From Candidatus Omnitrophota bacterium (lineage in GTDB: Bacteria > Omnitrophota > Omnitrophia > Omnitrophales > Aquincolibacteriaceae): a DNA stretch of 64,000 nucleotides. Where the stretch lies: the NCBI GenBank assembly GCA_022711115.1, contig JAKLFP010000006.1, positions 86,214 through 150,213 of the forward strand. The letters are read 5' to 3'. Of the stretch, positions 34,901 through 58,900 are shown piece after piece. The position numbers were made by a program, and so were the translations under genes. Under the pieces are notes generated by a model. The model was not told the DNA's origin, searched no databases, and saw nothing but the letters and a program-made list of their open reading frames with translations. How positions within the stretch are numbered: the first letter of the stretch is position 1; every line of letters begins with the position of its first letter.

Positions 34901-37900
34901 GCTTGCGAAATAACAAGATAAGATTTGTATGCGTCGTGTTCTTGTTCTGCGACAAAAAAGCTAAGATCGCCTGTGGTTTCATCTTTTTGGAAGTCAAGGA
35001 TCCGTTTCCCGGCAAGGAATGTTTCGATTTCTTTTTGAAGTTCCGCGGCAGAACGCCCATTCGCGGCCTCAAATTCAACCTGCCGTTCACCTTGCTTCAC
35101 GATTAATTTTTGTCCGGATTGTTCAATGATAATTGCCGGCGGCGCTGAGTAAGGCCCACCCCACGGAATGCGTCCTTTTCGGGACAGGCTGCGTACTTCC
35201 GAGCGCAACGCAGGTTTTTCCTGCGGTAATTTTCCCAAAACCGCTCTGGCCGCATCATGAACAAGGCTTTTTCCTTTTTCATCAAGACGATTTCCTGAAA
35301 CAAGCTGCTGGACAACATTGGTCACACGGGCATTTACAAAATCGATGAGATCCTGGACCGTCAAACCTGAAAATTCATAATAGGCCGGTTTGCTTTTGGC
35401 CTGCAAGGCGGCTTCATCCGTTTTTGTGATTTCGATGCCGAATCTTTCTTCGAGAGACTGCATCAGACTCATTTCATCCAGGGAATCCATGCCGAGATCT
35501 TCTACTAACCGATCCGTCAGACGAATTTCTTCCTCGATCGCGGGAGGTAAAACCTCTTTTAAAATATCGATGACCTCTTGATCAATATTTTCACTCACCG
35601 TTCCCCGCATTTCCGAGCGACTGGCCTTTCTTCTTTCATTGATGGCGTGCTGAAAGGCATTCGAAAGTATTTTGTAGGGATTTTGCGAATAAAAATAATT
35701 TTGCCACAACCAATGCGCCAGACCTGAAATCCCGATAAAAATCATGCTAAACGCAACCACGCGGGGGATCTGTTCCTCCGCCGGCAAGAAGAATGTTGCC
35801 GTCCCGATAAGAGGAAATATAATCCCCACCAGGACCTTCATAAAAGCACTGCTCCGTCGGAATTGGAGTTCAGCAAGAAAAGAGGTGGGGTTACCGTTTT
35901 CCGCTTTTTTGTAATTGTCGGCATATCGGTTTTTCATTTTTTCCCACAATTGTTCTAAGCGGTCTAAGGTTATCCGGTTTTTACTATTTGATCGGAGATA
36001 TGCTCTGACCGATTCATCAAGAGAGCGCAATTCAGACCTTGCTTCCGTAAAGAGAACAGGATTGATTAAGTCATGGCTTAAATTAAGGGCATCATATTTC
36101 AAAGCTTTTTTTTGCTGTAAAAGTTGAATGCTTTTTGAAGGAATAGTTCGAAACTCAATACGATCAAACTCTGGGACTGTTTCTGTCCTGACGTTTTTGG
36201 TCGGTTTGATGCCCATGGAAGATATCCAGCCTTCAAAGGTTGTTTCCCCTGCTTCTTCCTGAAAGAAGTAAAAACGAAGTTTGAACGGCCCTTGAACAAT
36301 GTCCTCGGGTCCCAATTCGCGGGACCGGATGGTCCCGGCAGCCCCCGCTAACCATGAAAACCACACAAGATGGGAAAATTGTGTCCTTGGCAAATGTTCG
36401 TGGTGGGAATTATAAAGTTTATCGGGAAGTGCGAGATAGTGCTGTACCGCCTTACGGTTCTTAAACAACGTGATCATAAGACCTAAGGATCCTTGCTCAT
36501 CACCTTCAAAGTCATGGGCATCCAACCGAAGCTCCCGCTCCCATCCGATGCCTCCATTTCTCATATTCCAAACAAGCGGTTGGTGGACCAGATCCGACAG
36601 TTTGAATAAAGGTCCCTGAACAGCCCGTACTTCGGAACGAGTTTCCAGCTTCCTTGGCATAAAGAAATTTCCCGCATCGTCCTTCGAATCCCCCATAGAA
36701 AGCTGCTCGATGCCTTTAAAAACTTCGGCAAAAAACTTTTTTGCTTCGGCCTGTCTTATAGATTTTGAAGCGATAGAAAATTCCACTGTGATATCACGGC
36801 CATAGCTATTCAGCATCGCCTGCGTGTGATAGTTCAAGCCTAAAAGGGTCATCTCGTCCCACGACAAAAGATTAAATCTCTGTCCGTCGCTGCGAATAAT
36901 GGCTGCTTGAAAACTCTTGTCTTGAACAAGATATTTTCTTTCGAGAAGATGTTTGGTTCTGGCGGTAGGCGCCGTGTGAAGCCCGAGAGCGTTTCCGATG
37001 CTGTATTTCTTTGCCGCGATCCAGCGATCTCCTATTTTTGTCAGCTTAAAATCAGTTTTTCTTAATTCGGAGCGCTGATCGTTCATGTAATTCGGCTTGC
37101 GGGTCACCGGAAAAGCAGGCTCGGCGGTTTTTCGGGCATATGCAAGCAGGTATTTCTGCATTTTTTCGTATTTTGTACCGACGTTGATCGGGCCTTCGAT
37201 CCCACGGATGGGCTCCGTCAGTGTGAATCCCGCGGCCCGAAGAAGTGTTTCGAAATAACTCGGCGTGACAGTAAAGACCCAGCCATTGAGAAGTCGATCG
37301 CCGCTTAATTTTTGATTTTTAGGCTTGAAGATATTTCCCCCCGGGGCCCATCGGACAAAAAGAGGCGCGTCTTTTTCGAGAAGGTCCCTGAGCGAAAGTA
37401 ATGCGTTTAGCTGTTCTTCGGGCGAAAAATAAAGGAGCACATCGCTGATAAAAATCCCTCCGAAAGTTTTCCCGTTGAAATCAGCCGTTCGGAAATCGGC
37501 GGTCATGAACCTGTCTTTAGACATGTCCCCGAAAGAGGGATCTTCGAGAGCGGCTTTGATAAGCGACGGCGAGATGTCCGTTCCCCAAAGGTCGGTAAAT
37601 CCCTGTTCCTTAAATTTCTTGAGCGCCCTTCCGATGCCCATACCCACATCAAGAATGCTTTTATCCTTGCCGGCCATCAACGCCAGGAACTGATCGATCG
37701 TTTCTTGATGCGGAGAAACGTTCCAATCGCGGAGCTTATGGCGTTCAAAATCAAGGGAGAATTCATCATCCGTCCAGTACCGGACATTGCTGATCGCCGG
37801 GTCGGGGGGTGATTTTCTGAAGGTTTCTACCGCCGCCTGGAATTCCGGAGAAGTTTCCATCAGCGTTGCCAAAACCCGGGCAAATTCCGGATGATGTCTT

Positions 37901-40900
37901 ATCTCGGAACGTTTTGGGGAAGCTGGGACTGCGGAAGATACAGGCAGCAACGGTATGAGCGGCTCATAATAATGTGGCGCCGGATTGTAGTAAGAAGAAA
38001 CGTCTTCTGTTTCTTGTGCGCGTAATTCATTGCGCGGTGGAGCAATGTAGATACCGTCAAAAACAAGTTTGCCAACCAGATTGGTCCCGGCGTATTCTCT
38101 TTTTACAATAAAATCTATCTGGGCAATGCCACCATCTAAATACAGTATTGGCACCTCTACTATTTGATTTGCATATACCCTGGGAATGTCTCTCCCATCA
38201 CTTCCATGCAGTTGTATTCTAAACTGGCTGGGCACATTAATTGTTTCAGCGCCAACATGAAGTCTCAGTATAGTATTAGTCGGCCAACTTGCCAGTGATA
38301 CGTAATTAATTTTCGCCCATGCCCCTTCCCAGTTGCCTTGCCTAAAATCAAAATTAATTGTCCATTTACCCCCTGAGATACTTTCAGTCACTCCGCTCCA
38401 AAGAATGCCATGACTGGTAACTAACGGGATCAGGGATATGTTTCCTGAGGCACTAAAAAATTCCTTCTCGAGCTCTGTGGAATTCAAAGGGCGGGTAAAG
38501 GATGCGTCTCCGTTTTTGCCGGGAACATTCGTAAGGACTGCGGAGGATCCCGTAAAATTAGCCGGATAAGTTCGTATGTCATAAGCGTTGTAATTGGTGG
38601 GGCCGGTAATATTCATCGTGACTTGATTTGTCGCAGGTCCTTTTCTGATCGACATCAGTATATTCGTCATCTGTGCCAGCGCGCTTTGCGCCTGAAGTCC
38701 GAGCACGAGCAGGCCGGTTATGACAAGTTTTGAGATCGCGCTCATCCGTACTTCAGAGCGGCCGGCGTTATTGTTGTCGTTCAGTATCTCCAGTAGTTTT
38801 AGAATGTTTGGCTGAAGAATATCTTCTGTTGAAACATACTTCCGAAGAATGGTTTCGACTTGAGCAACCCGTAAGGTCCTTTGAGCCGCTAAATCCCGTA
38901 TATCTCCGTAAAGAACACTTGCAACGCCCCCCAACCCAAAAGCAATAAGGAATGCTACTGCGCCAAATCCGAAAAGACCGATGCTCCCTATTCCTAAAGC
39001 CAACGCGAAAAGCTTATGACGTTTTAATTGGGATTCTGTTTTAAAGGAAAGCTCATTCATCCAAAACGTATATAAAACGGCTATCTGGGCAAAATCAACC
39101 TGCGCCTCCTCACCCTCCATTTGAGCCCATTTGTATATACTTTCCGCGATCTTATTCCATTCTTCTTCTTGATAAATCGTAAGCCGTTGTTTTACCCATT
39201 GAAGATCGACTTTCTCAATTGGTTTACGGGAAGCCGCCATAGATAGAATGTCATCAATAGCGCGCAAGGAATAAGGATGCGAAATTCTTCCTTTTTTGAT
39301 TGATTCGTTTAAAAAATTGATCCCCTTAAAAACTTCGGTTCTTCTTTCATCTATGAGAGGGGAAACTTCACCTGCAGGGAATGCCTCTCCACGCACCTCG
39401 GAACGTTTTTGAGAAACAGGAACTGTGGCAGGCATGAGTGATAGCCGATGACCGCTCCGGTTATAAATCACTCCATTGAGTGTTAGTGTTTGATCGTCAT
39501 TAAAATGGACGCTCTCAAGAGGAGCCTCTAAGGTTGCCCATTGGATTCCTAAATTGGGATAAGGATTGAACATGTCTATCAGATGGATCCCCGCCAAGTA
39601 ATTAGTCATACCTCCGGCGCGGACCCATTCTCCCCAAACTACCACCTTGCCATCCGGCGAAACATCCCAAACATTAGGAACCAATCCGCGATCTTCCGCT
39701 GAATCATGTAACTTAAACGTTCTCCAGGTATGCGAGCGCGGGTTTCGAAGATCAACCATTTGAAGCGTTTGAATGCCAGAGGGTAAACCTGGACCTACTT
39801 GCACCCATGTTCTAAGCTCAAAATCAGGATTGGAAGTAGCCCGGATAAAAGGTGTTGGCGAATATTGAATCAGTGGAAAAACCTGATCTGTTTTGACACG
39901 ATAAAAAGCCTCAGCCCAGTAAGGCGTCATATTCACTACGGTTTGGGTTGCTCCCACAATGCCGGCCTGTGCCGTGAACCAAGTCCCGGAAGCAAGATTG
40001 GTCGAGATCTGAACCCAGTAAGTACGGTTGGTGGAACTTTTAAAACCCATGCCCATGACTGAACCATTTTTTACAAAAGAAATTATTTCGACCAGATTCG
40101 TCATCTGTGCCAGCGCGCTTTGAGCCTGAAGTCCGAGCACAAGAAATCCAAGCAAGGCAATCTTGGAAATCGTCTTGGCGCGCATTTCGGAACGTGTCTT
40201 TGAATGATAAGTTCCGGGCAAATGATAAGTACCGGGTAATAGCTTTATATAAGTTTGCTGCCCCGGAGAAATAAAAGCCAGTTTCTCATCAAGTTTCGCC
40301 GTCACATCCACTATGTTTTCTTGCAAATTCCATGATGAGATAGCCTTAACAGTAAACAAAGGCCCTTCAGATTTCCAGGAGGGCGCACTCATCATCACAA
40401 ATCCCATCGCACTAAACGCTTCTATCGCATCCTTTTCGAATTCAGCCCTGGAATACGAACGGGCCGTCCGCGCCTCGGAACGCCGGATTCCGTTGCGGTC
40501 ATACGTCCTGTTGCCATTCAGAGTGATGGTTCCGTTTTCATTGAAGCGGATTGATTGCAACGGATCCGGAAGATCAAGAAAGATTCTTTGCTTGGTAGCT
40601 GGTTTATAAAAAACAGCACGATTGCCTAAGATTCCATAGACAACAATGACTCCATCCTGGGAAACATCCCATGGGAAAGCTGAAATACGCGCATAGTAAG
40701 CGTCATCAGAAATGATTGTCCATGTTCGATTACGCAAATTCATCATGTCAAAAAAGATATCCCATGATGTTCCCCCTGTCGTCCGCGGATCAATTCGAAA
40801 AGCGAAATCAGGGTTGGATGGGGCTCGGGTCCAACTAACAATAGATCCGGGTGATGAAGGCACAGCATACAAAGAACCGGCTTGTATTTTAAGAAACCCT

Positions 40901-43900
40901 TTCCCGGTAAAAGATCCGAACAACTGAACAGATGTTTGTGGGGTGCTAATGAAACCCGCCCAGGCAAAATTCCATGTGGGATTTGCCGTAAGATTCGTTG
41001 CAGTTAAAACGCGATGTGCGATATTGGTCCCGAAATTCGTTTCGCTGAGAAATCGTAGCCAAAGATTTGTCGGCGAGTAAGCAAACGAAGTGATCACCGG
41101 CGGGTTTATCTGCGGGATTGCGGGATACCCGATAGCACGGAAAAATCTCTGGCTTGGATTTAGAGCCAATCGATTTAAATAGAGGGCGACAGAATCCACA
41201 TAAGATTCTCGGCCGTAACCGCTGCCCATTACGTCAACTGACGTAACCGTATCGCCTTCCGCAAGTCCGAGCTCCTGAACCGTAAAAGTTCGGGTCACCC
41301 ACTGATTCTGCGGAACTAAAACAAAATTGGTATTGCTGGCTGAATTTTCATCATGCCTGTAATTAAAGTACCTGGCTACCTGATAGGCCGAGCCGTTGTT
41401 TCTCAAGCCATTCAATCGGAAATAAACTGGCGCTTCCCTCCCCGAACCGTCTCCAGTAAGTGGGGCTGAAACAATTTTGAAAGTTATATCAAATCGGCTG
41501 AAATTACTCAGCGTAATCGGTGTGTTATATTCCTGCATCATAAAACGGCCTTCACCGTAATCGGGAGGACGTGACAGGCTAACAACTCCTGTGCGTCCAT
41601 CGTAAGAAGAAAAATATCTGGGAACAGTTTCCGCATTAGTCGAATATGGGACCCAACTGTCTGGCAGGCTATTGGTAGATGATCTTTGAAGAAAATCCCC
41701 ATTGACGACCCCATCAACCACATCCGACGGAACCGTAAAGGTATAAGAAGCTGAACCATTCGTTGCCGCAACATTGGCAAAATGAAGAAAATTTGTGGCT
41801 GTCCCGTTGAAAAGCCGCTCAGCGCTTTGGATCTCATAGGTTTTGTTGGTCGCCGGCCCCGTGATGCCCAGCGTGAATTGATTGGTCGCAGGCCCTTTTC
41901 TGATCGACATCAATATGTTCTGCGCCCATCCTCCGACAGAGGACAGCATCAGGCCAATAAGAGCGGTAATCGCTAATTTGCCCCGCACTTCGGAGCGAGG
42001 TGCGACCGGAGCTGCGGAAGAAGTAGGCGGAGATTCTATTAGCGGCTCATAATAATGCGGCGTCGGGTTGTAGTAAGAAGAAACGTCTTCCGTTCCTTGT
42101 GCGCGCAATTCGTTGCGGCGTGGTGCGACATAGATGCCATCAAACACAATCCTCCCGACCATGTTGGTTCCCGCGTCTCTTTTGTCCAGAACAAAAGCAA
42201 GCTCGTTATGCGCAGTTGGCTTAAGCGGCAACTCTATAATCTGTCCCGCTTGTGGATTATGAACCCCTAGAATTTGCGTATTGGGCTTAAATTCGATTTT
42301 GATATAGGTCGGCAGATTTGTCGTACCGGCGCCAAAATGCAGCCTCAAAACCCTGTCGGCGGGAATGTACATTATATCTCCATACTTCAATCTCCCCCAC
42401 GCGCCGACTAAGCTGCTAATGTTAAAATCAAAGTCGATTGTCCATTTTTTGTCCGCTGAAATTCTCTCGACCACACCTGTCCAAATGATGCCATGGTAAT
42501 AAAATAACGGAATCCACGAGACATTCCCTACGGCACTAAAAAATTCGTGGTCTAATTGGCTCGAATTTAAAGGATGGACATAGGAGGCAATTCCACCCGT
42601 TGCGCGAATATTTGTTAAAACCATGGGTGAGCCTACGAAATTAGGGGGATAAGTTCGCAGATCATAAGCATTGTAACTTTTAGGACCAGTAATGTTCATC
42701 GTGACTTGATTTGTCGCAGGTCCTTTTCTGATCGACATCAAGATATTCGTCGCCTGCGCTAGCGCGCTTTGAACTTGAAGCCCGAGCGCAAGCAGTCCGG
42801 CCATGGCGAGTTTCGAAACCACTCCAACCCGCACTTCGAAGCGGGCGAAAGAAGTGATGAGTTGGCGGACTTCCCTGTGAACGGCAGGAGCCCCTAAAAG
42901 AGCTGAGAGGTTAAAGCGCGGAGAATTGACTTTTTTAAGATTGATATTGTCAAAACGCATCGGAAAGATTGGATCACCGTTCTCAAGAGTCGCTTCTCCA
43001 CCGGCCTTCAAGACCAGAAACGCTCCCTGAACAATATCCCAGATTGACGGAGTGGGTTTCATGTAAAAGATCTCAGGGTCTCCTTGGTTATAAACACCGC
43101 TTGAAATGACGCGCCCGATATTGATAAACCCGGATTCTCCTTTATTGAAGATCACTGAACGAGCCGCCGCCTGAACGGCCGCATAGTAAGGCGCCGGAGA
43201 AACTCCGGCTTTATCGGATTGATAAATAGCAACCCTGGCATTTGCAAGGGTACCGGCTGCAGGATCGATCCAAACGGGTTTTCCGTTCAATAAAACTCCG
43301 GGCCGATCCCGGGTGGCGGTCCACATCGAGCTGCCTGTTCCGTCAACATCGTATTCGGGAGCAAAAATAACTGAAAGGACCGGCATGCCGTCTTCAAGCA
43401 GAAGAAGCGCGGTATCATAGCCTTTCTTTTTTGTCTCATAAGCTTTAGTGCCATCAATAGGGTCCACGATCCAGACATGCTTCGCTTTCTTGGCATTCTC
43501 GATCAGCTGCCTGTTCGCTTCCAGATCGGCATCGTCCTGAGAAAAATTTTCTTCACCGAGGACCACAGAATCAGGCACGATCCTGGGAAGTTCAAGATTG
43601 AAGAGATTCTGAATGTCTCGATCAGCCTTTGTTTGCCCTGAGTTGTCACTTTTGACGACGCGATCCAGATCGGAAGACTGAAGGGCTTTTCGCATAATTT
43701 CACCGGCTTGTCTGGCTAGGCTTTCAACTTCACTCAGCGCTTTTTGAACTTCGCCCGGTGTTAAATCCCGCATTTCGGAACGAGATTTTGGTTTTCCGAG
43801 ACGGACGAAAAATTTATGATCCATGTGACCAATGGCGGTTGTCCGTGCTACCGGACGATCTCGATAAGTCTCATCGATCTTGTGCACCCGCAAACCTTTG

Positions 43901-46900
43901 GGAGCTTCCACGCTCAAGTTTGCCGTTTGAAGATCCGCCACTTGCCGCAAAGAAATCTTAACAACACCTTTTCCTGTCTCGATTACAAGCGGTTGGGACA
44001 ACGAAACCTCAAAAATTTGTCCGGCCAAAATCGCCACACCGCCTTTTGTGATCATCGAACCGTCCTTGATTAAAGGAATGGAAACCATCATCCTTTGCTG
44101 TTGTGAAGACAATGTATCGATCTGGACCCGGAAGATCCCGGGGCCGAAAACAAGTTTATGCCCGCGGGAAACGCGCATTGTCTCTGTGGTAAGGATAGTG
44201 GGCTTTTCCGGATTTCGCATTTCCGAACGATGCTTTTTTTCAATTCCTATTTCAGCATACAAAGGCTGCCCTGTGTCCTGGACTTTATGAAGATGAACAA
44301 TAATATCACCGACGGAAATGCTTTCTCCGGCAATCCGTCTGCCCTCTTGGATTACTTGGCCCTCCTTTAAAATTTGCAAAAAAGCGGCAGGCAGACTATC
44401 CCAACCATAACGACCGGGATAAGCTTCAACATCTACGGTCAAAGATAATCCATGGTCTAATTCGATAGTTTGCTGATCTTCAACACGTTTTAAGGATAGT
44501 TCTATTTCATTCGACACTTCAAGTTTTTGTCTTTGGGGACGGTTTTTATAAAGTTCTTTTATTCCTATCACGATCATCCCTAAGATCGCAGCCGGTGCAA
44601 CAATCCTGGCCAGAACAACCAGGGAATTGACCCAATCGATATCCATCCGCAATTCCGAGCGACGAAAATGAGGCGCTTCGTCCATTTCCGGGGCCAAAAG
44701 ATCTTGAGTTTGCTCCACCGCGGCCCTGACAACCGACATTTCATCAAGATAGCGGCGATAAGCGCGCGTGGTCACGGGATCGGCCGGCGATTCCTCGGAC
44801 AAAGATTCGATTTTCTTTTCCAGACCCTGAAGCCAGCTCGCCCATGCCGCAGAAGCCGCGTAGAGCCATCCCAGAGTTCTTACAAGATTTTCGACGTTTT
44901 CCGGTTTTGCGTTTTGACGGTCCGACAGAAGCCGTTCGGCCGCAGGATTGAATTTACGAACCAACGGATCCCGGATCTGGCTAAGCATGCTCGGTTGGTC
45001 CAGCCGGTTATCCTGGAGATGCCTTCCGATCTCTGTCTTGATCCTCACAGGGTCCGTGGAAGGATTCCCGTTGTGCGGCGCGAGCGCAAATAAAGCGTTG
45101 GAAACTTCTCGGAGCGCGGACAAAGCGTCGGCGTGAACCTGTTCCGGTAACAATTTATTTTGATAAATCTCTTCCAGACTCAACAGCCTGTCCATAAGAG
45201 ACGCGGTATTTGAACCGATAAAATCAAGCCCTTCCTCTCCGGCTACCGCCTCTTGTCCTTCTTTTTCAAGAAAACGCTGCGCTTCCCGTCTGCTCTGAAA
45301 GATCAAGGCCGTTTCATTTTCAATCCGCAACTCCGAGTGAGGCGTTTGGGAAGCCGTGTCCCCGCCCGTAAGCGAGAACAACCGCCCGCGCAACACCTCG
45401 AGCCGGCTCGATAAAACCTTCCGGCTACGTTCCAAATTTATCCGTTCTTGTAAAGAGGTTGCTTGGCGAAACTTTACAGCAAAAGATTTTGAGCTGGATT
45501 CCAAATTGGCGATCCTCAAACGAATCTCTTGTTCGTCAACTGGAATCCCCGGATCCGGATCTTCGGCACGCGCCTCCGACCGGGAGATCTTAGTCATGTC
45601 CGGAATATTCCCGAGCAGCTCTCCGACAGCACGGGCTATGCGAACCCGGGAATTGTTGGGATCATCACCGAAATTCCCGGCATTGCTCTGCACTATTCCG
45701 ATCAAGTCAGAGACAACTTCCGCTTGTTTACGGACAGCCTCGGGAAATCCTTCCGTGGAAATCACGTCGAACAGCCCGCCTTTATTTTCCGTAATAGCCA
45801 GGAAAAGTTCCTTCAGCTTTTCACGATCCCCTTTGAAATTTTCCTTGATGCCGGTCATGTCGGGATTAACGCTCCGGACCAAAAGCCTCAAAAGGATCTC
45901 GGCCTTGATTTCAGAAGTCAATGTCCGGTTGCTCATAATATCGTTCAGGACTTTTGCCCGCCGCTCCGCCTCAGAAAAACCCGTCATGGATTCAGGCAAT
46001 GATTCTCCGAGATTCAGAGCCTTGGATTTTTGTTCCTGCGCGTGAAACTCATAGGCCGAGGCCACGATCAGATCCAACCCACGCTGTGCCCGCCAAGCCA
46101 GTTTCCGCGTCGCCAATTCACTGCTGGCACGAAGAACATCCGGATCGCCCTGCCGGCGCGGACCGTAATCCACCACTAATTTGCCGCGCTCTGCCGCGGG
46201 AAGCACTTTCCTGAAACTTTCAACGATCTGATTATTGGAGGTTGGGGTTCCTGTCCCTAAGGTAAAGACTTCGCCTACTTTTTTATTCTCTGTCTTGGCT
46301 TGATAAGACAGTGACAAAGATTTCATAATCGCGTGACCAATGTCCAGAACATGGATATAATCCCGGATATTGGTGCCATCGGGCGTCTGATAATCTTTCC
46401 CAAAGATCTGGAACGGAACCTTTTCTTTTCCGTAAAGGAAATATTTGATGAGCCTCGGGATGAGGTGCGTCTCCGGACCGATATGCCCTTCCCCGACCCA
46501 CTCTCCGATCTCCTCCCAGTAAAACGCTCCTGCCAGATTGAAAAAACGCAGCGCCGCGAAATTAACGCCCTGCGCTTGATAGGCCTGCATCAGGCGTTCC
46601 ATCAGATATTTGGTCTCTCCGTAAGGGTTCATCGGTTTTGCCGGGATCTTTTCATCAAGCAATCCGTATTTATTGAAATTCTTTCCTTCAAAAACACCAG
46701 CGCTCGAGGCGAACGCCAGGGGGATCCCCAGTTCCTTCGCGACTTCTTCCACATCCAGCGTACCAACCACATTATTGTCAAAGTACGTCGCCGGAAAATT
46801 TCCGGAGACCCCAGCGGCAATGTAAGCCGCCAAATGAACAATGCTGTCCGCGTGATGTTCCATCGCGACCTGCTTCAAAAGATCGCGGCTTGCGATATTT

Positions 46901-49900
46901 CCTTCCACCACTGAAACTCTTCCAGGGTAGGCCGCCTGGACCTTCCGCAGATAGGCCTTCCGCTTGGGTGTGAGCATGTTGTCAAAAAGGACGACCCTGG
47001 ACCCGTTGGAAAGCGCTTCATACATGACCCCTGAGGCTACATAACCAAAACCTCCCGTGATCAAGACGGTCTTTCCTTCATGGATTTTAGGATCCACATT
47101 CGGAGCCACCGGGCTTTCGATCATGGATTTCTGCCAATTTAAAAAGTAGAGACGCTCGTCATCTTTAGGAAGGATCTCAAGTTCCCAGTTCTCTTTGATC
47201 AAAATTCCGCCGAGCTCATAAGATTTCTTGGAAGCCAGAAAGGCCGCGATCTTTTCAGGGATCCCTTTTTCCCGAAGTTTGCGTCCCAATTCTTCAGAAG
47301 ACATGTAAAAAGCTTCCTGGGCCGCGATCTCGACAGCGATATGATCGTCTTGCGTCACCTCCACGCCTCCGATGCTGCCAAGACTGGCCTGAAGACGTTT
47401 TTTCCAGTAATGAGACTGCGCCAGATACGAAGTAGCGACCGTTTCCACCACGGCTACGGCATCGGGCTTTTTGATCGGTTCGAAAGTATCTTCGCGCGTC
47501 AGCCCGACCAGAGGAGATTCCGGTCTGCGGGGCCTGTCATCGCTCGCACGTTCTAATTTTTTGACAGTTCTTGTATTCCCCTCGAAATCCACCTGCGGTT
47601 TGGTGTCAAGCCGCCACGGCGTTCGGCTGGACGCTTTGAGACTTTTTCTCCACAACACGCGAAAACTCGGGTCCCCCCACAGCACTGTGTCCTTAATGGC
47701 GTCCGTGGCGTTCCCGTAGCCGATATGGCGCCACTGCCCGTCGGAGGTTTTGATCTGGTTCCCAAGCCGGTCATCGCGATTATTTTTCTTCACAACACCC
47801 AATGCGATATGGGCTCGGTCATCCTGATTGCCGGGATTCCATGTCATTTGCCCGTAGCCGATCAATCGCTCATCCGCGATGGGGTTCAGCTGATTGTCCA
47901 CATTAAGGTACTGGACCACTTCAACGCCGAAGGAATCGAGAAAAGCGTTCACATCCTCCCGGAGAAGAACATCATCAAACGTATCCCCATGACCGGTTCC
48001 CCCTGTCGCGATCTCGCCGTTCTTGTTCAGAAAAGGCATTCCTGTTTTCGCGTCAAAAAGCGGCATCACGCCCTGTTGGGCGATAAAGATCCGGTCTTTC
48101 ATCCCGAACCACTGATTTTCCTCAAAGAACTGTATCGTTTTTTCATGGGTGATATCGCTTGTCATGATGATGACGGGAAAAGACGCGTCGTGACCGTAAT
48201 ATTTTGCTGCGGCCTGGATCTTCTTGATGATCCCGGCATAAAGCGGGAGCTGGCTCAAGGGTGTTCCGGGCAAAAATCCCTTGGGGTCAGGGCTCTTAAA
48301 CTCAGACCCCGAACCTCCGGCCGCCAGGACAAGCGCAAATCTTGATTTCCCGGGCATCGCCGGATCCGCCCGCAAAACTTTTTCCCGGGCCAGACGCTTT
48401 GCGGCGGCATCCTCCGCTGCTCCCGGTTCATGAACAGGAACGGTGAACGTTTCCGGAACTTCCGGCTTCGGCACTCCCGGCATCACAATCGTGTCCCGGA
48501 GTCGCTTGGCCTCTCTCCACAGAATTGTTTTAATCTGTCCGAGTATTTTTTTCTGCTGCTTTTCGCTTAAGGAATCCCACGGCGCCAGCAGGTGCTCCCA
48601 GCCGACTTCCTTGAGGCTTTTCATGGCCCAGGATGGGATTTCCGCGGCAACGCGTACTTCGGAACGTTTCTGCGAACCGCTTGCCGGAACAATCCCGCTA
48701 AGAATATCTTTTTCCCCCGCCGTCAGAACGGCATACGCTTGCGCGTGTTGTTCCGCAATGTCTCGCAAAACTTCTTCAGCGTAGTCTTCATCATCAACTT
48801 CCGGATCAAGACTTTGCATGACTTCTTTAAGAACGCTGGCGAATACTCTCGTGTTGAATTTCCCGTCGGCAAAAGTCTTCGGCAAAAGTTTCCCTTCCGC
48901 CAATTCCTCGGGAGAAAGGTCAAGTTTGGAGATCGCCTTTGCCGCGGCCTCTTCCATAACATGTAGTTTCAGGTCTTTCAGTGTCGGCACATCACGCAGC
49001 GCCCTGAAAATGGCCGGAAAACTGTAGCTGTTGTTCAAGGTGCTTCCCTGCGGGTATCCAAAAGCGCCTGTTGCGATAAAACGGATGTTCGGCATTTTTT
49101 TGAGTTCTGCCGGGTCCGCTTCGGGAGTCGGGTTCGAGCCCATAAAAGCACTGGCCTGGTCCTTCATGCCAGAAAAGATCGATTCCTTGCCCCACAAAAA
49201 CCCAGGCTCGGATAATCCTATAAAAGCATCCGCCCCTTGCAGTCCTTCCGCCAAACGCCCCTGATCGATCAAAGAAAGGACTATTTGGTTAATCTCGGGC
49301 ATAAGATCGCCGTATTTTTCGCTGAGAAATCCCGCGATGTTCTCCGGCAAACGGCCTTGTTTCTGCAGGGCCTCCATCGCGGCCAATCTTTCTGCCGCGG
49401 CATGGGCAACATGCTTTTTATCTCCTCCCTGCTCGACTTCGGCTAAAGCCAGTTCATGGGCCTTCGCAACCGAAAACTCCAGGCTTCCTTTAAATCCCTG
49501 AATGTTCAAAGCCGCCAGGTCATTTTTATGCTCTTCAAAGATTCCTTTTCGGCCCGAATAAAGAGGGCCCTTGGTGTCGTATACGATAATATTGCCACCC
49601 CCTGTTTTATCCATACCGAAACCGAGACGTTTCAGGAGAAGTGCTGTCGCGGTGGCAGAGGCCCCGGCGCCGGCGATCACCACTTTCATTTTAGAAATAT
49701 CACGGTTGGTTTCTTTCGCGGCCCGTAGAAGAGCTCCCGCAAAAACCATCGCGGTCCCGTGCTGATCGTCATGAATGGTCGTGATCCCTGTTTCGTTCAG
49801 TTCTCTTTCCAGCGGAAAACAGACCGGCGACCCGATATCCTCCAGCATCACCACAACCTCAAGTCCTTCCTCCTCGCGAACCTTGGTGACATAAGCCTGG

Positions 49901-52900
49901 ACTTGCTGTTTGATCTTTTCCTTAATCTCAAACGCTATTCGTTTTTTCGCCCCGGGATCTTTTTCTGCCTTGTATTTGAGCCACATGTCCCGCGTATCCA
50001 CAAACGCGATGTCCACGTTCACGCCGCCGAACCACTTCAGCAAAATCCTTTTCCCTTCCGATACCGCGCGCATCACGGCCGGCCACTGCAGTCCGATCCC
50101 AAGCACCGCGGAAGCGTCCGAAAAAATCACGATCTTTCTTTTTTGAGCCGGGAAAGACAAAGGCTTTTTGCCGTAAAGCGGCGTTTCAAGGTCCAGGCCT
50201 TTTTTCAGCGCGTCCGCGATCGCTTCACAAACGGCTCCCACGCCGGGGGTATAAACCGTCTTCATCGCTTCGATCACATCGACCGGGACAATGCCGTGCT
50301 TAAAAAATATGTCGATGAGTTTTTTGTAAGTCTGATATTCCGATGGGATCGCCGCCGGCAAGCTGTCCTCAGATGTCTCCCGAACTTCAGACCGGGGTCT
50401 GCTTTCCATACTAACCGCTACTTTGCAATTATTTGTGTCGGCCCGGGTCCTTACGCGGACATTTTCCCATCCCAATCGGGTAAGGTTTTTGAATGGAATA
50501 TCAAAGACAACCCAAGTTGTCCGATTTGAATCTACAATAAGCGAAGCTTCTTCTATCAATGCGTGGATATCTCCGTAGATATCAGCAGGCCTTTTCCCGG
50601 AAGGATCCACGTATAACCGCATAGGGATCCGGATCCGATCGTCCGGCTCAATGAGTTCGACTTGAAGTTGTTTGTGATCCTTAAAGAAGGATTGCTTAAC
50701 AAAAATATTGACGGCTTTGTCGTTTGTTTCGACGAAACCCGGAACCAAAAGGCTGATATCCTGTGCGGGTAAATGCCATTGGGGGCCTATGAAATCTCCC
50801 AGCGGCTCCCGAAAACTCCATGCCGTCAGCGCAAGAATTAACAACGCCATAGCCATACTTAGGTTTAAGAAAATAGCCCGTGAACTTAGGTTTGGATTCC
50901 ACCAGCGCCTTATCTGGGTGTCTGTGCGTGAAGCTTCTGGGATGGCAGCAACAGAACCGCCTTTCGGGGGCATGGTTCGTATTTCGGAACGGCGTCCAAA
51001 AGCTTTGGTAAGCGCTTCGGCAAGGGCTTTCGGATTGTCCCATGGAGCAAGATGTAATGAGGAATCTTTTTTGGGGTTTTTAAAAACAATTTTTTTCTGG
51101 AAAGGTTCAAGGCTTCGTTTTTCTCCTGACTGTATGACAGACACTTGTTTTGAGTTCAATCCAAGCGCCCGCTGTAATGTTAAAACAAGGTCTTCCGGAC
51201 TTTGCACAAAATCCAACGGGGCCATGTCAATGCCCACCCAAATACCGTTTCCAGCCTGATGAAAAGTTACCTCATACCCAAGTACTTTTGCCGTCTCACC
51301 CCGCATTTCGGAACGGCCCAGGTTTTGGCTTGGATCTGTTCTACCATTTGCGCGCTGATGAACGTTGATGATCGTTTGGGCGATCTCCATGGAGTTCATA
51401 ACAAAACCGTCTTTCATCACCGGTTTTACATTTTCGGTAACAAACTCCGAGGGACCCTGAGCGTAAACAAGCAACTGGCCGTCTTCGCTCTCAATAACAT
51501 GAATCCCATTCGGCAATGTCCTTCCCATACCTTGGATCAATCCTGCGAGCTGTTTTGCCGAGAAAACCGTGGTGTAATCACCGATGACCGCCGCAAGAGA
51601 TGTCGGATCTTTCCGGCTAGCGGCCCTCACTTCAGCCCGTTGAATGGCAGCAATTGCATTTTTTGCACTTAGGTGAACGGATGGATCTGAATCATTCAGC
51701 GCTGAGTAGAGCGCTGAAAGCGCTGGTTGGGCCTGGGGACCAATTTCCCCAAGTGTGATAATGGTCTGCTCACGAATCTCCGGAGAAGGGTCCCTCAATT
51801 GGGGCATTAACTGCCAAACTGCATCGCCCGCCTCAGAACCCAAGGCGCCAATAGCGGCAATGGCCTTTAAACGCACCTCTTTTTCCGGGTCGCCGATTAA
51901 ATGAAGCCAATCACTCACATTTTTCGGCATAGCCGTTTCAGACGTACTCCTCATTTCAGAGCGATTGTCCGCGGGATGTTTTCCTTCGAAGTGTGATGGT
52001 TTTTTGACAAAGGTGACTTTAGCGGTTGTCCCTTTAGGATAAGGATGTTTCAGGGTTTCGGGATTTTTTAAATCAACTGCTTTATGGCCGGGAGATGGAA
52101 TGATGCTGGCAATGTATTCACCGCCGCCTAGATTTTCACGTACCTCAACGGCTCGCTTGATAGCCTTGAGCGTCATGGTTGCCTCAAGTTTATAGATTTT
52201 AAAATGAAGGGCGTCGTCAGCTTTCACTTCCGTTAGCCCTTTGACCTTCGTCCTCATCTCGGACCTGGCAGAACGGCTTTTCAGGGTATCTATTTTTCTT
52301 TGACCCTCTTGATCTTCCGGTTGGATATAGCGGTGCAGAAAATGCCAAAGAAGAGATTCAGGAGTGAGAAGCGACTGGTCCCAAACCGGCATGTCTTTAA
52401 AAATCGTCTTGAATCGTTTCAGGACGTTGAATACAAAATCATTCTGCTTTCTCTGGAATTGCTGGGCATAGGCGATTTCGATTAACGGCCCCAAAAAACG
52501 GTTAAGAAACGGCAGTTCATAAGCAAGTTGTGTATTAATGGAACGATGCGCTTTTTTCATGGTTTTAAAGCTACGTTCCGTTTCTTCGAATCTCATCTTT
52601 TGCCATCTCCGGATCACCTCGGCAACCGTATGCTCCGGTCCCACCACCAAACTTGCGAGGATATCCCGCATCAAGCGGATGTCATAACCTGTCAGGATAT
52701 TATTGCCGTAAAGCAGCATATCAGGACTTGTATAAAGAAAGATCCCATAATGTGTTTCTTCAGGTTTCAAAACGGCCAACAACTCATCACTCAAAGCTTC
52801 AACCCCTGTCACAATCAAGGTCTCGTCCGGCGCAAGCTGCAAAAGCTGTTTTTCTCCTCGGTCGTCTTTAACGCGGATTTTCTTCCCGTCCAAAGCATTA

Positions 52901-55900
52901 CGGACATCCCACGGATTGGCAAATTCAAGGTCCAAATGTTTCAGCTTAAGACCTGCTTGAGCGAGCATTTCAGAGAGCTCTTCGGTGATTCCATGTTTGC
53001 CCGAAGCGCGCATGCCACCGATCAAGATCACCTTGGGTTTTTTCTCAAGGATCTCACGGATAACCTCCTCGGTCTGTTGCTTTTTGGATCGATCCACCTT
53101 TTCGACCAATGCTTTTCTTTCCTCTTCGGTTTTGATCGCTCGAAGTTCGTCGAGAGTTTCGGGCAGAAGTTCCAGGCTCATGCCTTCAAGGTCATAAGGT
53201 TTTTGGCCCTCAAGTTTTTTCGCCCATGCTTCGGGATGGCGCGCCAATTCCGCATTCATAATACGGATGACGGCCAAAATAAAGGCTGCTTTTCGAAGAC
53301 TTATTTTTTTCGCGTCGGCAATACGAACAACATTGTTAAAAGCGCTGATAATTTTATCTTCCATAATGCGGTTCACGGCATCTTCCGGCCATTGTTCACG
53401 AACAAGGTTCTGCCGCCATTCCAGGTAAGAAACGATCACGCCGCCCGCATTGGCAACCACATCCGGAACAACGATGACACCTTTTTGCTTCAAAATTCCG
53501 TCGGTTTCCTTGTTTTTGATCGGTCCGTTGGCTGCTTCAATCACCAATTTGACCCGGAGCAAACGGGCAATGCGTTCATCAATGGTATTTTCGAGTGCGG
53601 CAGGCACTAGGGTATGAACCTCGCTGGCCCAAAATTCTTCCTCGGAGATCACTTTCACTTCTTCGGGGTATTCTTTTGCATAATCCAAAATGGTTTTCCT
53701 GGGAAGCATGTTGCCGGCCGCGTCTTTCCTGGGTGCCAGGAATTCCAGAATCTTGGGAATGTTCAAACGTTCACCGGTTTTGGTCGCAATAGCGCCTTCT
53801 TTTTCTTTCACGGCCATAATCCTTGCTCCATTTTCATGAAAGATTTGCGCGCCATGCCCGCCCACATTGCCGAGTCCTTCAAACGCAACGGTTTGTTTTT
53901 CTATCTCTGTCCCGATGCCGAGCCGGGCTCCAAAAACTTTGACTGCTTCGCGCCAGACAAAAAACACCCCACGGCCTGTTGCTGCAGTCCGACCATGTGA
54001 ACCGCCTTTTTTCTCGGGCTTGGCGGTCACCACAGCAATGGGAGATCCTTCTACCATTGGAATTTTATGCTTTTCAGGATTTGCTAAATACGCGTCTAAA
54101 TAGGGTGTGTCGACATCTTTGGAATTGCTTAGTTTCCACCGAAATTCGATTGTTTTTTTGAATAATTTGTCATGCTTAATCTTTAAAAATTCATCTGCCA
54201 TCCATGCCATTTCCTTTTCTCCAGTGCCGACATCCGGAGCCGGAATATCATTCAAAGGACCGATCGCATCGGCATCTTTGGCAAGCAAAGCCTTCACATA
54301 ACCTCGAGTCAATCGTGCGAGCTCGCCTTCTGAAAGCTCGCGCGGATTCACGGCAATGCCTCCCTTGCCCCCTCCGTAAGGAAGCCCTGTGATGGCATTT
54401 TTGATGCTCATCCACATGGAAAGAGCCTGCACATCCTCAAGATCGACATTCGATTTATAGCGCACACCGCCTTTTCCCGCCCCCCGCGCATCATTGTGAT
54501 AGACGCGATAGCCTTTAAAGATCTTTGTGGTGCCATTATCCATACGCACCGGAATATTTACTTCAAGGATACGATAAAAGCTGAGGAGCCATTCAAGAAG
54601 TTGGGGATCAAGGTGGATCAGCTCTGCGACCTCCGAAACCTGACGCTTTGCATTATCAAGGGCCACCTGACCTTCGGATGCTTTTGCCTGTGCTTCTTTT
54701 TCTGCTCGCACTTCGGACCGTCCTTCAAGTTGGCCGGGCATGTCGGCCATCAAAATTCCCTCGTCATCTGACAGCAACGTCTGCTGACCGCCAGGCGCTA
54801 CATAGCGCGACACCGGCCTGCTGAGTTTTTTTCCTCCGCTGAAATTCAGGAAAGCGATCGGTTTCCGGTTGAATTTTTCAGAAAGTTTGGAAGCCCAAAA
54901 ATCAGCGCTAAACTGATCCGTTCCGGCCACTACCAAAATCTGGTCTGCTTCTGATAATTCGTTAAATAACCTGTCGGGAGGTGAAGTGATGTCGATGGCC
55001 CATTCACTCTCATTGCAGATGAGCAGTGCCAGTTTGAATTTTTGATTCAATAAAATGATTCGCGATTCTTGGTTATGAGCGTATTTCTTGAATTCTGTTT
55101 TTTGAACTCGACCCGTTCCATCGGAAAGGAAAAAGACATAGAAAGCCCTTAAGTACTCCAGCCCTTCGGGAGGGATCCTCTCCAAACCGTAGCCGACCGA
55201 AATTCCAAGACGCCGGACCGTTTCTGAGAGAATTCTTTCTCTTTCTTTTTCGCGTTCCGGAGTGTAGCTGTTCCAACCCACAACTTCATCCGGGCTTTCA
55301 GGGAAAACAACAAGATCGGGGGCATTTGTTCCGAATTTATCTTTGAGCCCTTGCAGAATCCCCGCCATTCTGGCTGTGCTCGCATCAAAATCATTTTCCT
55401 TCATTTGGACCCAAGCGATCCTTGGAGCGTCACTTTTTGCCTTTTCGTCAAGCCACACAATCTGTGCGGGTAACGCTTCTTCTTTTTTTCTCACTTCGGA
55501 ACGAGAAGAAACTTCGGGCGGCTGTTCTTCAAAAAGAAGATCAAGGGCCAACTGACCTTCTTGACCATAACCTTTCTGCCGAAACAGATCTTCTAAGCGA
55601 GGGCGTTGTACGAGGTCGCTGAAATCCGCATCTTCGGAAATTTGGTCTTGTATGGTCTTGCGAAGCAATTCCAGAATCCTTCCCGCGGATGAATAATCAG
55701 AACCACGTTGAGTCTTACGAATAAGAGAATCTGTTAACGCCGTAAAAATATTAGCGAGAAAAATAGTGTCTCGAGCTTCCTGAGAGATATTGGCAGGAAC
55801 ACGGCTGGCTGGTTTTTGATCCTGCATTTTTGCCCTCGCAATAGCACTTTGAATCCAGTCCATGACCGTTTTCTTGGTTTTGTTTTCAGTCCTCACTTCA

Positions 55901-58900
55901 GAACGAACTGTGGCAGAAACCGTCATCTTTTCAAGAAGCTTTTGAGGTACAGGACGGCCCTCCTCAAAAAAATTGGCTGTCGCCCAATCATAAATGGCAC
56001 CCCCTACGGATTTTTGGGCTTGGAAAAAGTTTTCTTCTTTATTGCCGGGAAATTTTGATAACGTTTCGCCGGCTACCTTTAAAAACTCACTTTCAAGAAA
56101 TGTTTGCATCTCCTTTTTTCGCTTGGATAAATCCTGAAAAAATTTTCTTTCTTCTGCACTTGCGGTTTCTTCTATGTTTTTGGGGCGTTCAAGGAGTCTT
56201 TCGATAAAAAGCTTGGCGTAGAATTGCGCCATTTCGAGGTTAATCTTGTCCCATTTTAAATTTTTAAGCTCTTCGAGGGCTTTCTGCGCTTGCTGCCCCG
56301 CCGTCGTCAAAGCATCTTTTTTGGATAGGGCCAATTTTTGCCAATATTCGGAAGGCATACTCGCGATCATTTCGGGCGTTAGGTCATCCGCGCGAGTTGC
56401 GTTTTTGATTTTTTCCCAAGCAGCTTCGTTTTGTGCTAGGAATGCAGCTTCAGCTTCTCTTTTTTCAGCTTCAACGGCTTCCAGCTCTTCGATCTCCTTG
56501 TTTGTCACATCGAGTAAGAGGCGGCTCTTTTTCTCTAGAGCTTTTTGTTTTAACTCAGGAGTCGGCAACGCTTCGATGATTTCTTTTGTGATTTCTCCTG
56601 GCTCTGTTGCGTTCTGAACTACGGTGAGAGCATTCTTTACAGCCTGTCGCTTATTTTGCTCAACAACGCGCATGTAGTCTGTTTGAACCTGACCCATTTG
56701 CTTTGCTGTCCTGGTTTCTCCTTCTTGCATCAGTTTGGCTGTCGCTAATGCCTTTTTTTTAGCCCTTGCTAATTCCTGCCAATATCCGGATGGCATCCTT
56801 GCGATCATGGCTGGGGTGATGCTTTTGCTGCTTGTGGCTGTCCGGATGGTTTCCCAAACTTTTTTATTTTTTTCTGCTTGGACATCACCGGATCTCCGGA
56901 CTTCAGCTTCTTCAGATTCCATCTTCGAAATTTCCGCAGCTGTTATCTCCGAGAAAAGACGGCTTTTTGTCGCGATGGCTTCCTGTTTCAACGCCTGCGT
57001 CGGCAGTGCGTCGATAATTTCTTGCGTGATTTCTCCGGGCTCCATGGCACGCCGCACTACTTCTAAGGCATTTTGGATGATTTGCCGATCGTGCGCCTGA
57101 AGTTCGCGAGTCTGTTGCTCAAGCAAGGCTGTCTGACGAGCTTCACCGGCCGCTATGACTTTCCCCCATGACAATTGAGAAGCTTTTATTGCCGCTTTTT
57201 GGGCCTTTTGAACAGCAGCTTCTTTTGCAGCTTTTTCATCGGCCTTTTTCTTCGGTAAGGCAGCTCCCTGGGCAAGTTTCGACTTTTGAGCTGCTTCTTT
57301 GGATTTCTGAGTTTCTTGTTTCTCCCTTTCTTTTTGTTCCTTGGCCAACAAAGTAGCTATCTTCAAGGCTTCTGCCTTTTGAGCCGCCTCCTTGGCTTTT
57401 TGAGCCGCTTTTTCTTCCTCTTCTCTTTGTTTTTTTTCTAAAGCAGCTATTTTCGCAGCTTCTGATTTTTGAGCTGCTCTTTCTTCTTTTTCTTTTTCCT
57501 TTTTTTCAAGAGCGGCTAATTGGGCTTCGGACAAGCTTGGCTTTGCCGGTCGCGAAGTAATAATCTTTGGCTCTCTCCTTTGAGCCCGTTCAACCAAATA
57601 AGTTTTAAGAACCTCGCTTTCGGGATACATCTGCTGCAACTGGGTCATGGCACCATGGATCTGCTCCATGGTTCCCGTTTTTTGGATCTGGCGCACGCGG
57701 GCTTCTACTGCATTCCGAACGGTTTGAATATACATGTCCCTGTCACGCCGCTGCCTTTGTTTGATCTGTTGCAGATCCAAAAGTTTTTCGGCTGTCTTTT
57801 TTAAATCAGGATGTTTCGCGACCCACTGAGCCAATGCTTCTTGGAAGCGCCGGCCAATAAACACATTTCTTTTGCCAAAAAAAACATCCGCATTCCCTTT
57901 CCCATAGATTTGATTGATCTTCCGTCCGATACTTGTTGTTTCGATGACGCGCAGTTCGTTGGCGAGTATTTCAAGAGGAACGGGCATATTTTTGAATTGC
58001 GGGTTTCCATAATCGCGGATTCTTTTCAAAGCGCTATCCACTAATTCTGTGAAATCTTTATTTTCACTCGGAAGATGCAGTCCCCAAACTCCCATCTCCC
58101 TGAAATCCACTTCAAAACGGTGGATCGTGGAAGCTACAATCCCCGTTGTTTTTTCAAGGGCTTCCTTCAAACGAAGAAGCGTCAGCTTTTGATCTTTCGC
58201 GAGTTCTTTTTCGAGGTCTTCGACAGTCTTTATCACGGTATCGAACGTCAGCGTGACATGGCCGAGATTGACCTTTGTTTCCTTTGCTTTCTTTGCTCTT
58301 ACCTCGGAGCGAGAATGCGAAAGAAAAAGTTCCTGGATAGCCGACTTCTGATAATTCATGTCGGCGGGCCAGTCCTTTCCAAGAACGCCGTGGGCCCATT
58401 CGTGAAGATCCGCAAGAATATCCAAGAAAAATGCTTCTTTGGGATGGAGATCCGCAAGCTCGTGCGCGTAACCGATAATAGAAAACCGTTTGAGTGAATC
58501 AAGAAAAGTCAGTGCGCCATGAAAATTTGTATCCGCCGTACCGGCCTCAAGCGCCAAAAAAAGATCTTCCGATTCCTGGATCAATCGCTCAAGAAGTGGC
58601 CGCCAAATTTGATGCGCGGGAGTAGAGCTCGAGAGATTCCATTGTTGCAGGACCTTTACAAGTCGATTGTTGGTCCGGTCTAAAAGGCTCTTCAGCTCCT
58701 TGATGGATTTTTCATCCGCAGGCGAAAAAGAAATATTCCTGGAAAAAACAACCCCATAGAAATTTTTATCCGGTATCGGAGAAATCCCAGGGACATGCTG
58801 CCTGGTGAACATATCCAATGCCTCAAGCCATAAACCTGAAAGCTGATAATAAACTGCTCCAAAATGCGCCAAAAGCACGTCACCCTCTTTGGCATTCCCT

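Follow-up and report, generated by a model that had tools for sequence, protein, structure and literature searches.

Polyproteins of viruses, especially those of the flavivirus type, are encoded by one long open reading frame (ORF) in which short recurrent protease sites lie at the limits of the products, some of them multi-domain. Here, we describe a bacterial locus of comparable layout in a 64,000-nucleotide stretch of a Candidatus Omnitrophota genome (GenBank assembly GCA_022711115.1, contig JAKLFP010000006.1, positions 86,214 to 150,213; in the following, the window). It holds a giant ORF of 11,695 amino acids (aa), which is tiled by units separated by the pentapeptide RSExR, the junction. 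The subject of this work is one of these units, a module of 1023 aa, in which a UDPGP-family pyrophosphorylase domain and a GalE-type epimerase domain follow each other with no junction in between.

Giant proteins of the same phylum have been described as class 1 'multi-enzyme metabolic clusters' (bioRxiv 10.64898/2026.06.07.730766) and also by West-Roberts et al. (bioRxiv 10.1101/2023.11.21.568195). The giant of the window fits the class 1 criteria of the former preprint, as it is from Omnitrophota, is at least 10,000 aa long and contains many distinct Pfam families. It shares with the described proteins the very long ORF tiled by diverse enzyme families (starch synthase PF08323, methyltransferases, HEAT), the N-terminal signal peptide and scattered transmembrane helices. 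In contrast to them, its units are delimited by R[SA]ExR and a head and a tail are defined, and with 11.7 thousand aa it lies at the short end of their range. Both preprints speculate on cleavage of the giants and give no sites; in their text, the terms polyprotein and junction are absent and motif occurs once incidentally, while head or tail descriptions were not searched for. A full-text literature search for RSEVR returned nothing relevant.

By analogy, the nearest mechanistic relatives would be MARTX toxins and viral polyproteins. MARTX hallmarks are absent from the giant, which has neither RTX repeats nor the C80 cysteine protease domain (Pfam, E ≤ 0.01, all 11,695 aa). Its cargo resembles housekeeping metabolism and not toxins, its putative cleavage motif differs, and its TIKI-like domain is a conserved N-terminal head and not cargo. 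As in the flavivirus type, the putative P1 residue is basic and followed by a small residue, and internal signal peptides come after some of the sites. Unlike viral polyproteins, the giant is chromosomal and bacterial, lies among ordinary genes, comprises at least 34 units of cellular enzymes and shows no viral hallmark. GlmU is a natural bifunctional nucleotide-sugar enzyme. Gal10, an epimerase-mutarotase (PDB 1z45), is another, and the module likewise fuses consecutive or related steps in one chain. For pyrophosphorylase-epimerase fusions no paper was found, which is a weak negative from a narrow search.

Junctions and the undivided module

The sequence RSE[VMILA]R occurs in 33 copies in the giant ORF, compared with 0.23 expected from composition, and together with one RAEVR these copies form its junctions. 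Every RSE.. of the giant is an RSE.R, and an unbiased gapped-motif scan of the protein returns RSE.R as top motif. The junction codons vary synonymously (CGN/AGG, TCN, GAA/GAG), which argues for selection at the peptide level and against selection at the DNA level; at the fourth position, GTT, GTA, TTA, ATA and GCG are used besides NTG. A DNA-level basis of the junction, be it a repeat element, a ribosome-binding site with start codon or a recoding signal, was ruled out, as the amino acids alone are conserved. In a position-specific scoring matrix (PSSM) built from 51 junctions of the window and the related locus L008, no true site falls below 16.1 bits. The residue after the junction is small (A, S, G, T or N) in 32 of these 51.

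The module lies between RSEVR and RSEAR, with coordinates, strand and length exactly as given in the first-pass annotation, which had been made from the sequence without database searches. Its assignment of the two halves to the UDPGP family and to the epimerases is upheld by profile searches (PF01704, 44.3 bits at a cut-off of 22; PF01370, 130.8 bits) and by PDB matches. Within the module there is no RSE.R or R[SA]E.R. Nor does a cryptic, degenerate junction separate the two domains: the best PSSM score is -0.2 bits in the module, where the median maximum of shuffled sequences is 0.6, and -11.5 bits in the inter-domain zone. The same matrix recovers two degenerate junctions elsewhere in the ORF, RAEVR (aa 3148) and RFEVR (aa 6080), so that the method can see such sites, and none is present in the module. 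A junction-free length of 1023 aa is in itself not improbable, since 34 segments with a mean of 344 aa should yield about 1.7 such stretches, and the giant has 2. What makes the module significant is that it contains two complete enzymes, and how it compares with its relatives. The other Pfam-recognizable enzymes of the giant each lie in a module of their own. A further coupling, of GDH to a P-loop kinase-like domain within one module, had been suggested and could not be established, as the 325 aa after GDH give sub-threshold matches only. These are APS_kinase at E 0.014 and AAA_18 at E 0.14; the segment has a degenerate GGMRASGKHG and no PDB match.

Forty relatives were compared for fusion and junction position, and scans of genomes and metagenomes for module relatives gave 3 and 5 loci, respectively. 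The closest homologs are from Omnitrophota. Among them, P0001 shows 57% identity across 98% of the module and is encoded by a stand-alone gene of 1495 aa among ordinary genes (L001). It has the same order of pyrophosphorylase and epimerase and the same C-terminal extension, which is found in no other of the relatives and is 50% identical. Over the linker between the enzymes, 29 of 35 residues (83%) are identical, compared with 56% in the pyrophosphorylase and 61% in the epimerase, which makes the linker the most conserved part. The earlier proposal that the pair is one unit is borne out by this comparison. Among the 40 relatives, the fusion in this order occurs in the window and P0001 only, and in P0040 GalE and a UDPGP-like domain are joined the other way round. 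P0002, L006, L003 and L007 have the pyrophosphorylase without the epimerase, and within the flanks examined no GalE is found near the unfused pyrophosphorylase units.

Among the closest relatives of the pyrophosphorylase (23 cluster representatives at E < 1e-30), five carry junctions: P0018 (RSELR), P0022/L008 and P0028 (RSEVR), P0034 (RAE.R, 18 copies) and P0039. The junction follows 5 to 33 aa past the end of the UDPGP unit in P0018, P0022/L008, P0028 and P0039 and 107 aa past it in P0034, and a junction precedes the unit by 8 to 18 aa in four of the five. At the position after the pyrophosphorylase, the window has the conserved linker and GalE instead. The outer limits of the module agree with this pattern. 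Similarity to the cargo of relatives starts about 4 aa past the upstream RSEVR, and similarity to P0001 stops just short of the downstream RSEAR, where P0001 changes to its own C-terminal 'GGID' domain. The motif variants are concerted within a protein, with RSE.R at 33 of 33 in the giant of the window and RAE.R in its place in P0034, a complete protein of 6292 aa with head and tail, which has 18 copies compared with 0.30 expected. Such a concerted change is what one would expect of sites that co-evolve with a single recognition factor.

Relatives without RSE.R show a second class of separator, D-x-A-M-[LVIA], termed DxAM. L004 (aa 239-5828 of an open frame) has 10 copies compared with 1.04 expected, one of them directly past the pyrophosphorylase unit, and P0020 has DxAM at aa 362 and 913, one of which follows the UDPGP unit in the same way. 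In P0001 (aa 387) and the L002 genes, DxAM lies between an N-terminal carrier domain and the cargo. It is thus found at carrier/cargo and cargo/cargo limits, including the position after the pyrophosphorylase that bears RSEVR in other lineages. No DxAM is present between pyrophosphorylase and epimerase in P0001. Also for this motif only the amino acids are conserved among the relatives, and no consistent upstream Shine-Dalgarno sequence is found. Across the two architectures and their unrelated motifs, no separator splits the pair, and the limit from the pyrophosphorylase to other units is marked. The first-pass annotation had stated that the junction is not inserted at every domain boundary, and this stands. 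The placement of junctions in relatives together with the undivided pair means that separators delimit evolutionary units and not domains, and it suggests that they mark the limits of individual products.

The carrier architecture is seen in sister Omnitrophota (L001, 10001-14488; L002, 5094-16985; L006), where NUDIX, pyrophosphorylase and GT5 are each encoded by a separate long gene. The N-terminal domain common to these genes spans about 375 aa and includes a signal peptide (...DLWVNLSPYE...), the common C-terminal domain spans about 70 aa (PGGIDL...), and neither has a Pfam match.

Predicted cleavage and the conserved head

From these observations we infer enzymatic activities, substrate and cleavage, as well as the identity and location of the protease. 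We hold it to be probable on balance that the module is one conserved bifunctional unit of a giant composed of head, cargo and tail, with the pentapeptide as a protease site that releases the pair as a single product and the head as leading protease candidate. In the module, a linker of about 28 aa that is under constraint joins a complete AGX1/UAP1-type sugar-1-phosphate uridylyltransferase to a complete 4-epimerase of the GalE type, which is followed by the 148-aa extension. This one polypeptide would synthesize a UDP-sugar, with UDP-GlcNAc or another UDP-hexose as the most plausible product, and then epimerize it at C4. The motif R-[S/A]-E-h-R divides units that are autonomous proteins elsewhere. 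A site-specific protease would cut at or just after the second Arg, with Arg at P1 followed by a small residue, and pyrophosphorylase and epimerase would leave the chain together. For this protease, the foremost candidate is the conserved N-terminal head with its Ere/ChaN/TIKI-like domain.

The main rival explanation, which appears rather unlikely to us, is that the giant stays uncleaved. R[SA]ExR would then be an inter-unit linker or a docking or modification motif of a membrane-anchored multi-enzyme scaffold, and the two enzymes of the module would be neighbours that need no such linker. The 2026 preprint indeed reads such proteins as membrane-anchored multi-enzyme clusters (10.64898/2026.06.07.730766). 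Giants that share this head and tail also occur without any recurrent motif, and an unbiased scan of the junction-less giants L012, P0029, P0021, P0112, P0038 and P0032 yields no alternative one.

The position of the junctions relative to native N-termini speaks against an uncleaved scaffold. Five modules start 3 to 13 aa past a junction (MraZ 3, ACP 9, IMPase 13, HEAT 13 and UAP 12, the last compared with residue 9 in AGX1), and the Pfam-matched modules that start near junctions do so at about profile position 1-9. In others, the N-terminal lead is longer and reaches up to 68 aa. The short recurrent motif coincides with native N-termini and, in relatives, with the limits of the cargo, as in a polyprotein. 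In relatives, the same cargo is also encoded by separate genes. Furthermore, RSExR and DxAM are unrelated and yet occupy homologous limits, which is expected for lineage-specific protease sites.

Internal signal peptides speak in the same direction. Functional-looking Sec-type signal peptides (n-h-AxA) follow immediately after the junctions at aa 6362, 6963 and 7441, and others are found in P0007 and L011. A hydrophobic stretch follows 10 of 112 junctions, compared with a background of about 2-3%. Such signal peptides make most sense at free N-termini and are explicable only if the chain is cut first. Two of the three modules share ...LGLQAQSALAQM, and those at aa 6362 and 7441 also share ILMSIRKGPATN; by sequence, the signal-peptide modules resemble paralogous secreted proteins that form part of the polyprotein. 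Within the IMPase module, the probable degenerate junction RFEVR is followed by the signal-peptide-like VGVVSKLAMAGLLALGL, as is seen after true junctions.

By its motifs, the head resembles a superfamily of TIKI, erythromycin esterase, ChaN and TraB proteins with a 2His/2Glu catalytic motif (PMC6254334). Nearly every head that spans the positions (D/E/N)82-x-H84, E112, E187 and H503 conserves them, and the spacing of H84 and E112 equals that of His85 and Glu113 in BcR135, a likeness in sequence spacing. The head has no match in the PDB by sequence and nothing significant by Foldseek. At the other end of the giant, the tail has a generic Rossmann-like fold in the predicted structure. An alpha/beta tail ending in ...[RHQ]SA or similar is found at the C-termini of P0008, P0021, P0028, P0032-P0035 and P0039, which are head-associated giants with or without junction motifs.

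Several findings weigh against cleavage by the head. Heads with intact motifs are also present in giants that lack a recurrent junction motif (L012, P0029, P0112, P0038), so that the job of the head need not be junction cleavage. The classical protease domains C39, S8 and C80 were not detected in the giant ORF by Pfam, which would also suit an uncleaved scaffold. With its N-terminal signal peptide, the head should be extracytoplasmic. Most of the cargo (NAD(P)- and UTP-dependent enzymes, ACP, MraZ), unlike the head, would be expected to work in the cytoplasm. A wider reading is put forward tentatively, as a possibility that we do not rate as high as release of the pair from this one giant. It takes R[SA]ExR and DxAM as cleavage sites of a chromosomal bacterial polyprotein system, in which a TIKI/Ere-like head, fused or encoded next door, would cut apart dozens of enzymes, secreted proteins and regulators and the pair would be released as one bifunctional enzyme.

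A paralog of the head is encoded by a stand-alone gene of 725 aa, which is transcribed divergently from the giant gene and separated from it by 315 bp. The paralog shares 23% identity with the head (E 8e-13), starts with a hydrophobic segment and keeps all four His/Glu motifs intact. It carries no junction motif, and about 250 extra C-terminal residues are without match. A similar fragment, likewise divergent, is present in L011.

The two enzymes and their linker

The pyrophosphorylase half, whose UDPGP match by Pfam lies in the first third of the module, is full-length by comparison with the PDB. Eleven UAP/AGX chains match with E 9e-19 to 1e-13 over residues 12-267 to 319, and a weak ExFxPxK stretch follows at 384-400. 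Residue 12 of the module aligns to residue 9-13 of AGX1/UAP1, and the half is colinear from the native N-terminus. The best matches, at E of about 1e-18, are the UDP-N-acetylhexosamine pyrophosphorylases AGX1/UAP1 (PDB 1jv1, 6z2f, 8yp3), with which L-x2-G-x-G-[ST]...P-K-G and later motifs are common at an identity of about 25-30%. Among PDB sequences, UDP-sugar pyrophosphorylase gives E 1e-3 and UDP-glucose pyrophosphorylase E 0.2. Of the first designation, UDP-sugar pyrophosphorylase, the family was correct and the subtype calls for correction. Since the UDP-GlcNAc/HexNAc enzymes are closest, a UDP-HexNAc is at least as likely a product as UDP-Glc or UDP-Gal.

We consider it improbable that this half is a non-catalytic or re-purposed nucleotide-sugar binder, which would make the module a GalE with a regulatory or substrate-capturing partner. 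The argument for it starts from the signature. In pyrophosphorylases, L-x2-G-x-G-T-x-M-x4-P-K contains a phosphate-binding Arg (GGQGTRLG in AGX1). In LAAGGSGSEFKSPDPKG, the Gly residues, Ser/Thr and P-K are kept and the canonical Arg of GGxGTR, equivalent to Arg115, is Glu. This position is variable in the subfamily (G/R/E/A/D/K). Moreover, Pfam matches the profile only at positions 52-245 of 413, and the NCBIfam naming models give no family at E ≤ 0.01. Together with the substituted Arg, the missing NCBIfam assignment counts against an active enzyme. On the other hand, the remaining signature, GHGD, VDN and the ExFxPxK stretch are invariant among four close homologs. A Lys is present two residues downstream of the Arg position in the module and, by eye, in seven close embedded relatives (P0018, P0019, P0021, P0023, P0024, P0031, P0032); more distant relatives such as P0026, P0028, P0020 and P0022 do not have it. 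UDP-glucose pyrophosphorylases of the same Pfam family also do without the Arg of GGxGTR. Judged from its sequence, the half is probably a divergent, active enzyme.

The relatives of this half comprise 597 cluster representatives at E ≤ 1e-10. In an exhaustive profile-free search, the closest subfamily (23 cluster representatives, E < 1e-30) lies almost entirely inside multi-enzyme proteins of 700-6300 aa. In P0019, P0024, P0025, P0055, P0106 and P0120, it seems fused to other sugar-activation enzymes, with motifs read by eye; the apparent partners are a GHMP sugar kinase, a mannose-6-P isomerase-like domain, a second nucleotidyltransferase and a PGI-like domain. Such recurrent fusions would be a Rosetta-stone pattern for sugar salvage.

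The epimerase half begins at about residue 530 of the module by Pfam, with GDP_Man_Dehyd as further match (106 bits). Against PDB chains of GalE it reaches E 2e-45. TIGR01179 (galE) matches over the full profile (2-330 of 332) with 235.5 bits, and the next NCBIfam family is dTDP-glucose dehydratase with 90 bits. The score of TIGR01179 lies just under the equivalog cut-off of 262.3, which counts against the GalE assignment; the similarity is full-length and includes the Ser/Tyr/Lys site. TGGFGYVASG aligns to TGGAGYIGSH of GalE 8wxk and represents the NAD motif of extended short-chain dehydrogenases/reductases. FASSAG and NPYGETKYLME align to the catalytic Ser...Tyr-x3-Lys of GalE and are both identical in P0001. 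Of the motifs quoted for the module by the first-pass annotation, LAAGGSGSEF, MTSDITHEKT and YxxxK (as YGETK) are present; a strict GxxGxxG is not, its place being taken by the GxGxxA variant in TGGFGYVASG.

The conserved linker bears on the idea that a junction between two formerly separate modules was recently lost and that the fusion is an accident of one genome. Degenerate junctions do occur elsewhere in the ORF, as RFEVR at aa 6080 with its following signal peptide illustrates. In the linker zone no residual motif is left, as seen from the PSSM score, and the linker is 83% identical in P0001, a protein of different (DxAM, carrier-type) architecture with only 57% identity overall. We regard this idea as very improbable and largely refuted. 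That giant ORF or module are artefacts of assembly or annotation is hardly credible, even for a metagenome-assembled genome: a stop-free frame of 11,695 codons has a chance probability of about 1e-244, a gene with identical product length is called in an independent ENA assembly, ENA and Logan contigs match the window with 0 mismatches across the last 8952 nt, and homologous junction-bearing giants are present in several unrelated metagenomes.

Further features and significance

The features of the window are collected in Table 1. By Pfam, the modules of the giant include GDH, HEAT repeats, malic enzyme, IMPase, methyltransferase, ACP, MraZ and a GT5/phosphorylase-like unit, and at least 10 unrelated enzyme families are present, with none dominating. 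The flanking genes are ordinary bacterial ones (MqnA-like, sulfotransferase, M24 peptidase, split transketolase, GGT, ABC transporter), one of which carries an annotation to Candidatus Omnitrophota, and Rfam and tRNA scans found no RNA genes in the window. A second junction-bearing giant gene leaves the left edge of the window. It has a signal peptide and its own head, which is 31% identical to the first (HIEDAH, LLEGG, GVED, GGFHSEG) and is followed by RSEIR, RAEVR, RSEVR and RSELR. Near-misses of the junction motif are also seen in the first giant.

Table 1. Position of the giant ORF, its parts and neighbouring features in the window (numbering of the 64,000-nucleotide stretch)
Feature	Position	Strand	Remarks
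Second junction-bearing giant gene	1..6942	minus	Met near 6942; at least 2314 aa
Giant ORF	25993..61080	minus	11,695 aa; ATG start, single terminal stop; holds the module
Tail module	25996..26793	minus	aa 11430-11695; conserved in related giants; ends ...ARSA
Near-miss RNELR (two copies)	42103..42117, 38020..38034		repeated context IY[IV]AP.RNELRAQ.TED
Signal-peptide module starts (three)	41896..41997, 40093..40194, 38659..38760		
Probable degenerate junction RFEVR with the signal-peptide-like stretch after it	42766..42843		aa 6080-6105
Near-miss HSELR	45325..45339		
Downstream junction RSEAR	45568..45582	minus	aa 5167-5171
Two-enzyme module	45583..48651	minus	aa 4144-5166, 1023 aa; pyrophosphorylase, linker, epimerase, C-terminal extension
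C-terminal extension	45583..46026	minus	148 aa
GalE-type NAD-dependent 4-epimerase, full-length	46027..47067	minus	Pfam, TIGR01179, PDB
YGETK	46609..46623	minus	Tyr-x3-Lys of the GalE half
FASSAG	46696..46713	minus	Ser of the GalE half
TGGFGYVASG	47029..47058	minus	Gly-rich NAD motif of the GalE half
Inter-enzyme linker RLYFLNWQKSMIESPVAPNVDPKIHEGK	47071..47154	minus	about 28 aa
AGX1/UAP1-like sugar-1-phosphate uridylyltransferase (UDPGP family), full-length	47104..48651	minus	about 516 aa; Pfam and PDB matches
MTSDITHEKT	48136..48165	minus	pyrophosphorylase half
Nucleotidyltransferase signature LAAGGSGSEFKSPDPKG (LAAGGSGSEF region)	48277..48327	minus	gapless alignment to AGX1 LLAGGQGTRLGVAYPKG; Arg to Glu, Lys two residues on
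Upstream junction RSEVR	48652..48666	minus	aa 4139-4143
Junction RAEVR	51625..51639		aa 3148; directly after HEAT repeats; sole RAEVR of the giant
Segment after GDH	52267..53241		aa 2614-2938
Head module	59203..61080	minus	aa 1-626; signal peptide and Ere/ChaN/TraB/TIKI-like domain; HIQDAH, LLEG, GIE, GGFH; candidate junction protease
Stand-alone head paralog	61396..63573	plus	

The module nominates a predicted natural two-step UDP-sugar enzyme, which may be useful for production of UDP-Gal or UDP-GalNAc. For the giants, published work asks whether they are cut and offers no cleavage points to use. The module serves as an internal control for the separator, as the motif is missing where two enzymes form a conserved pair and is present at this position in relatives with the first enzyme alone. 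DxAM obeys the same rule, so that the idea of separators as product limits can now be put to the test, with defined sites, a protease candidate and an expected product of about 113 kDa. If the wider reading of a polyprotein system is true, a way of expressing genes that has until now been known from viruses and a small number of toxins would extend to ordinary cellular proteins.

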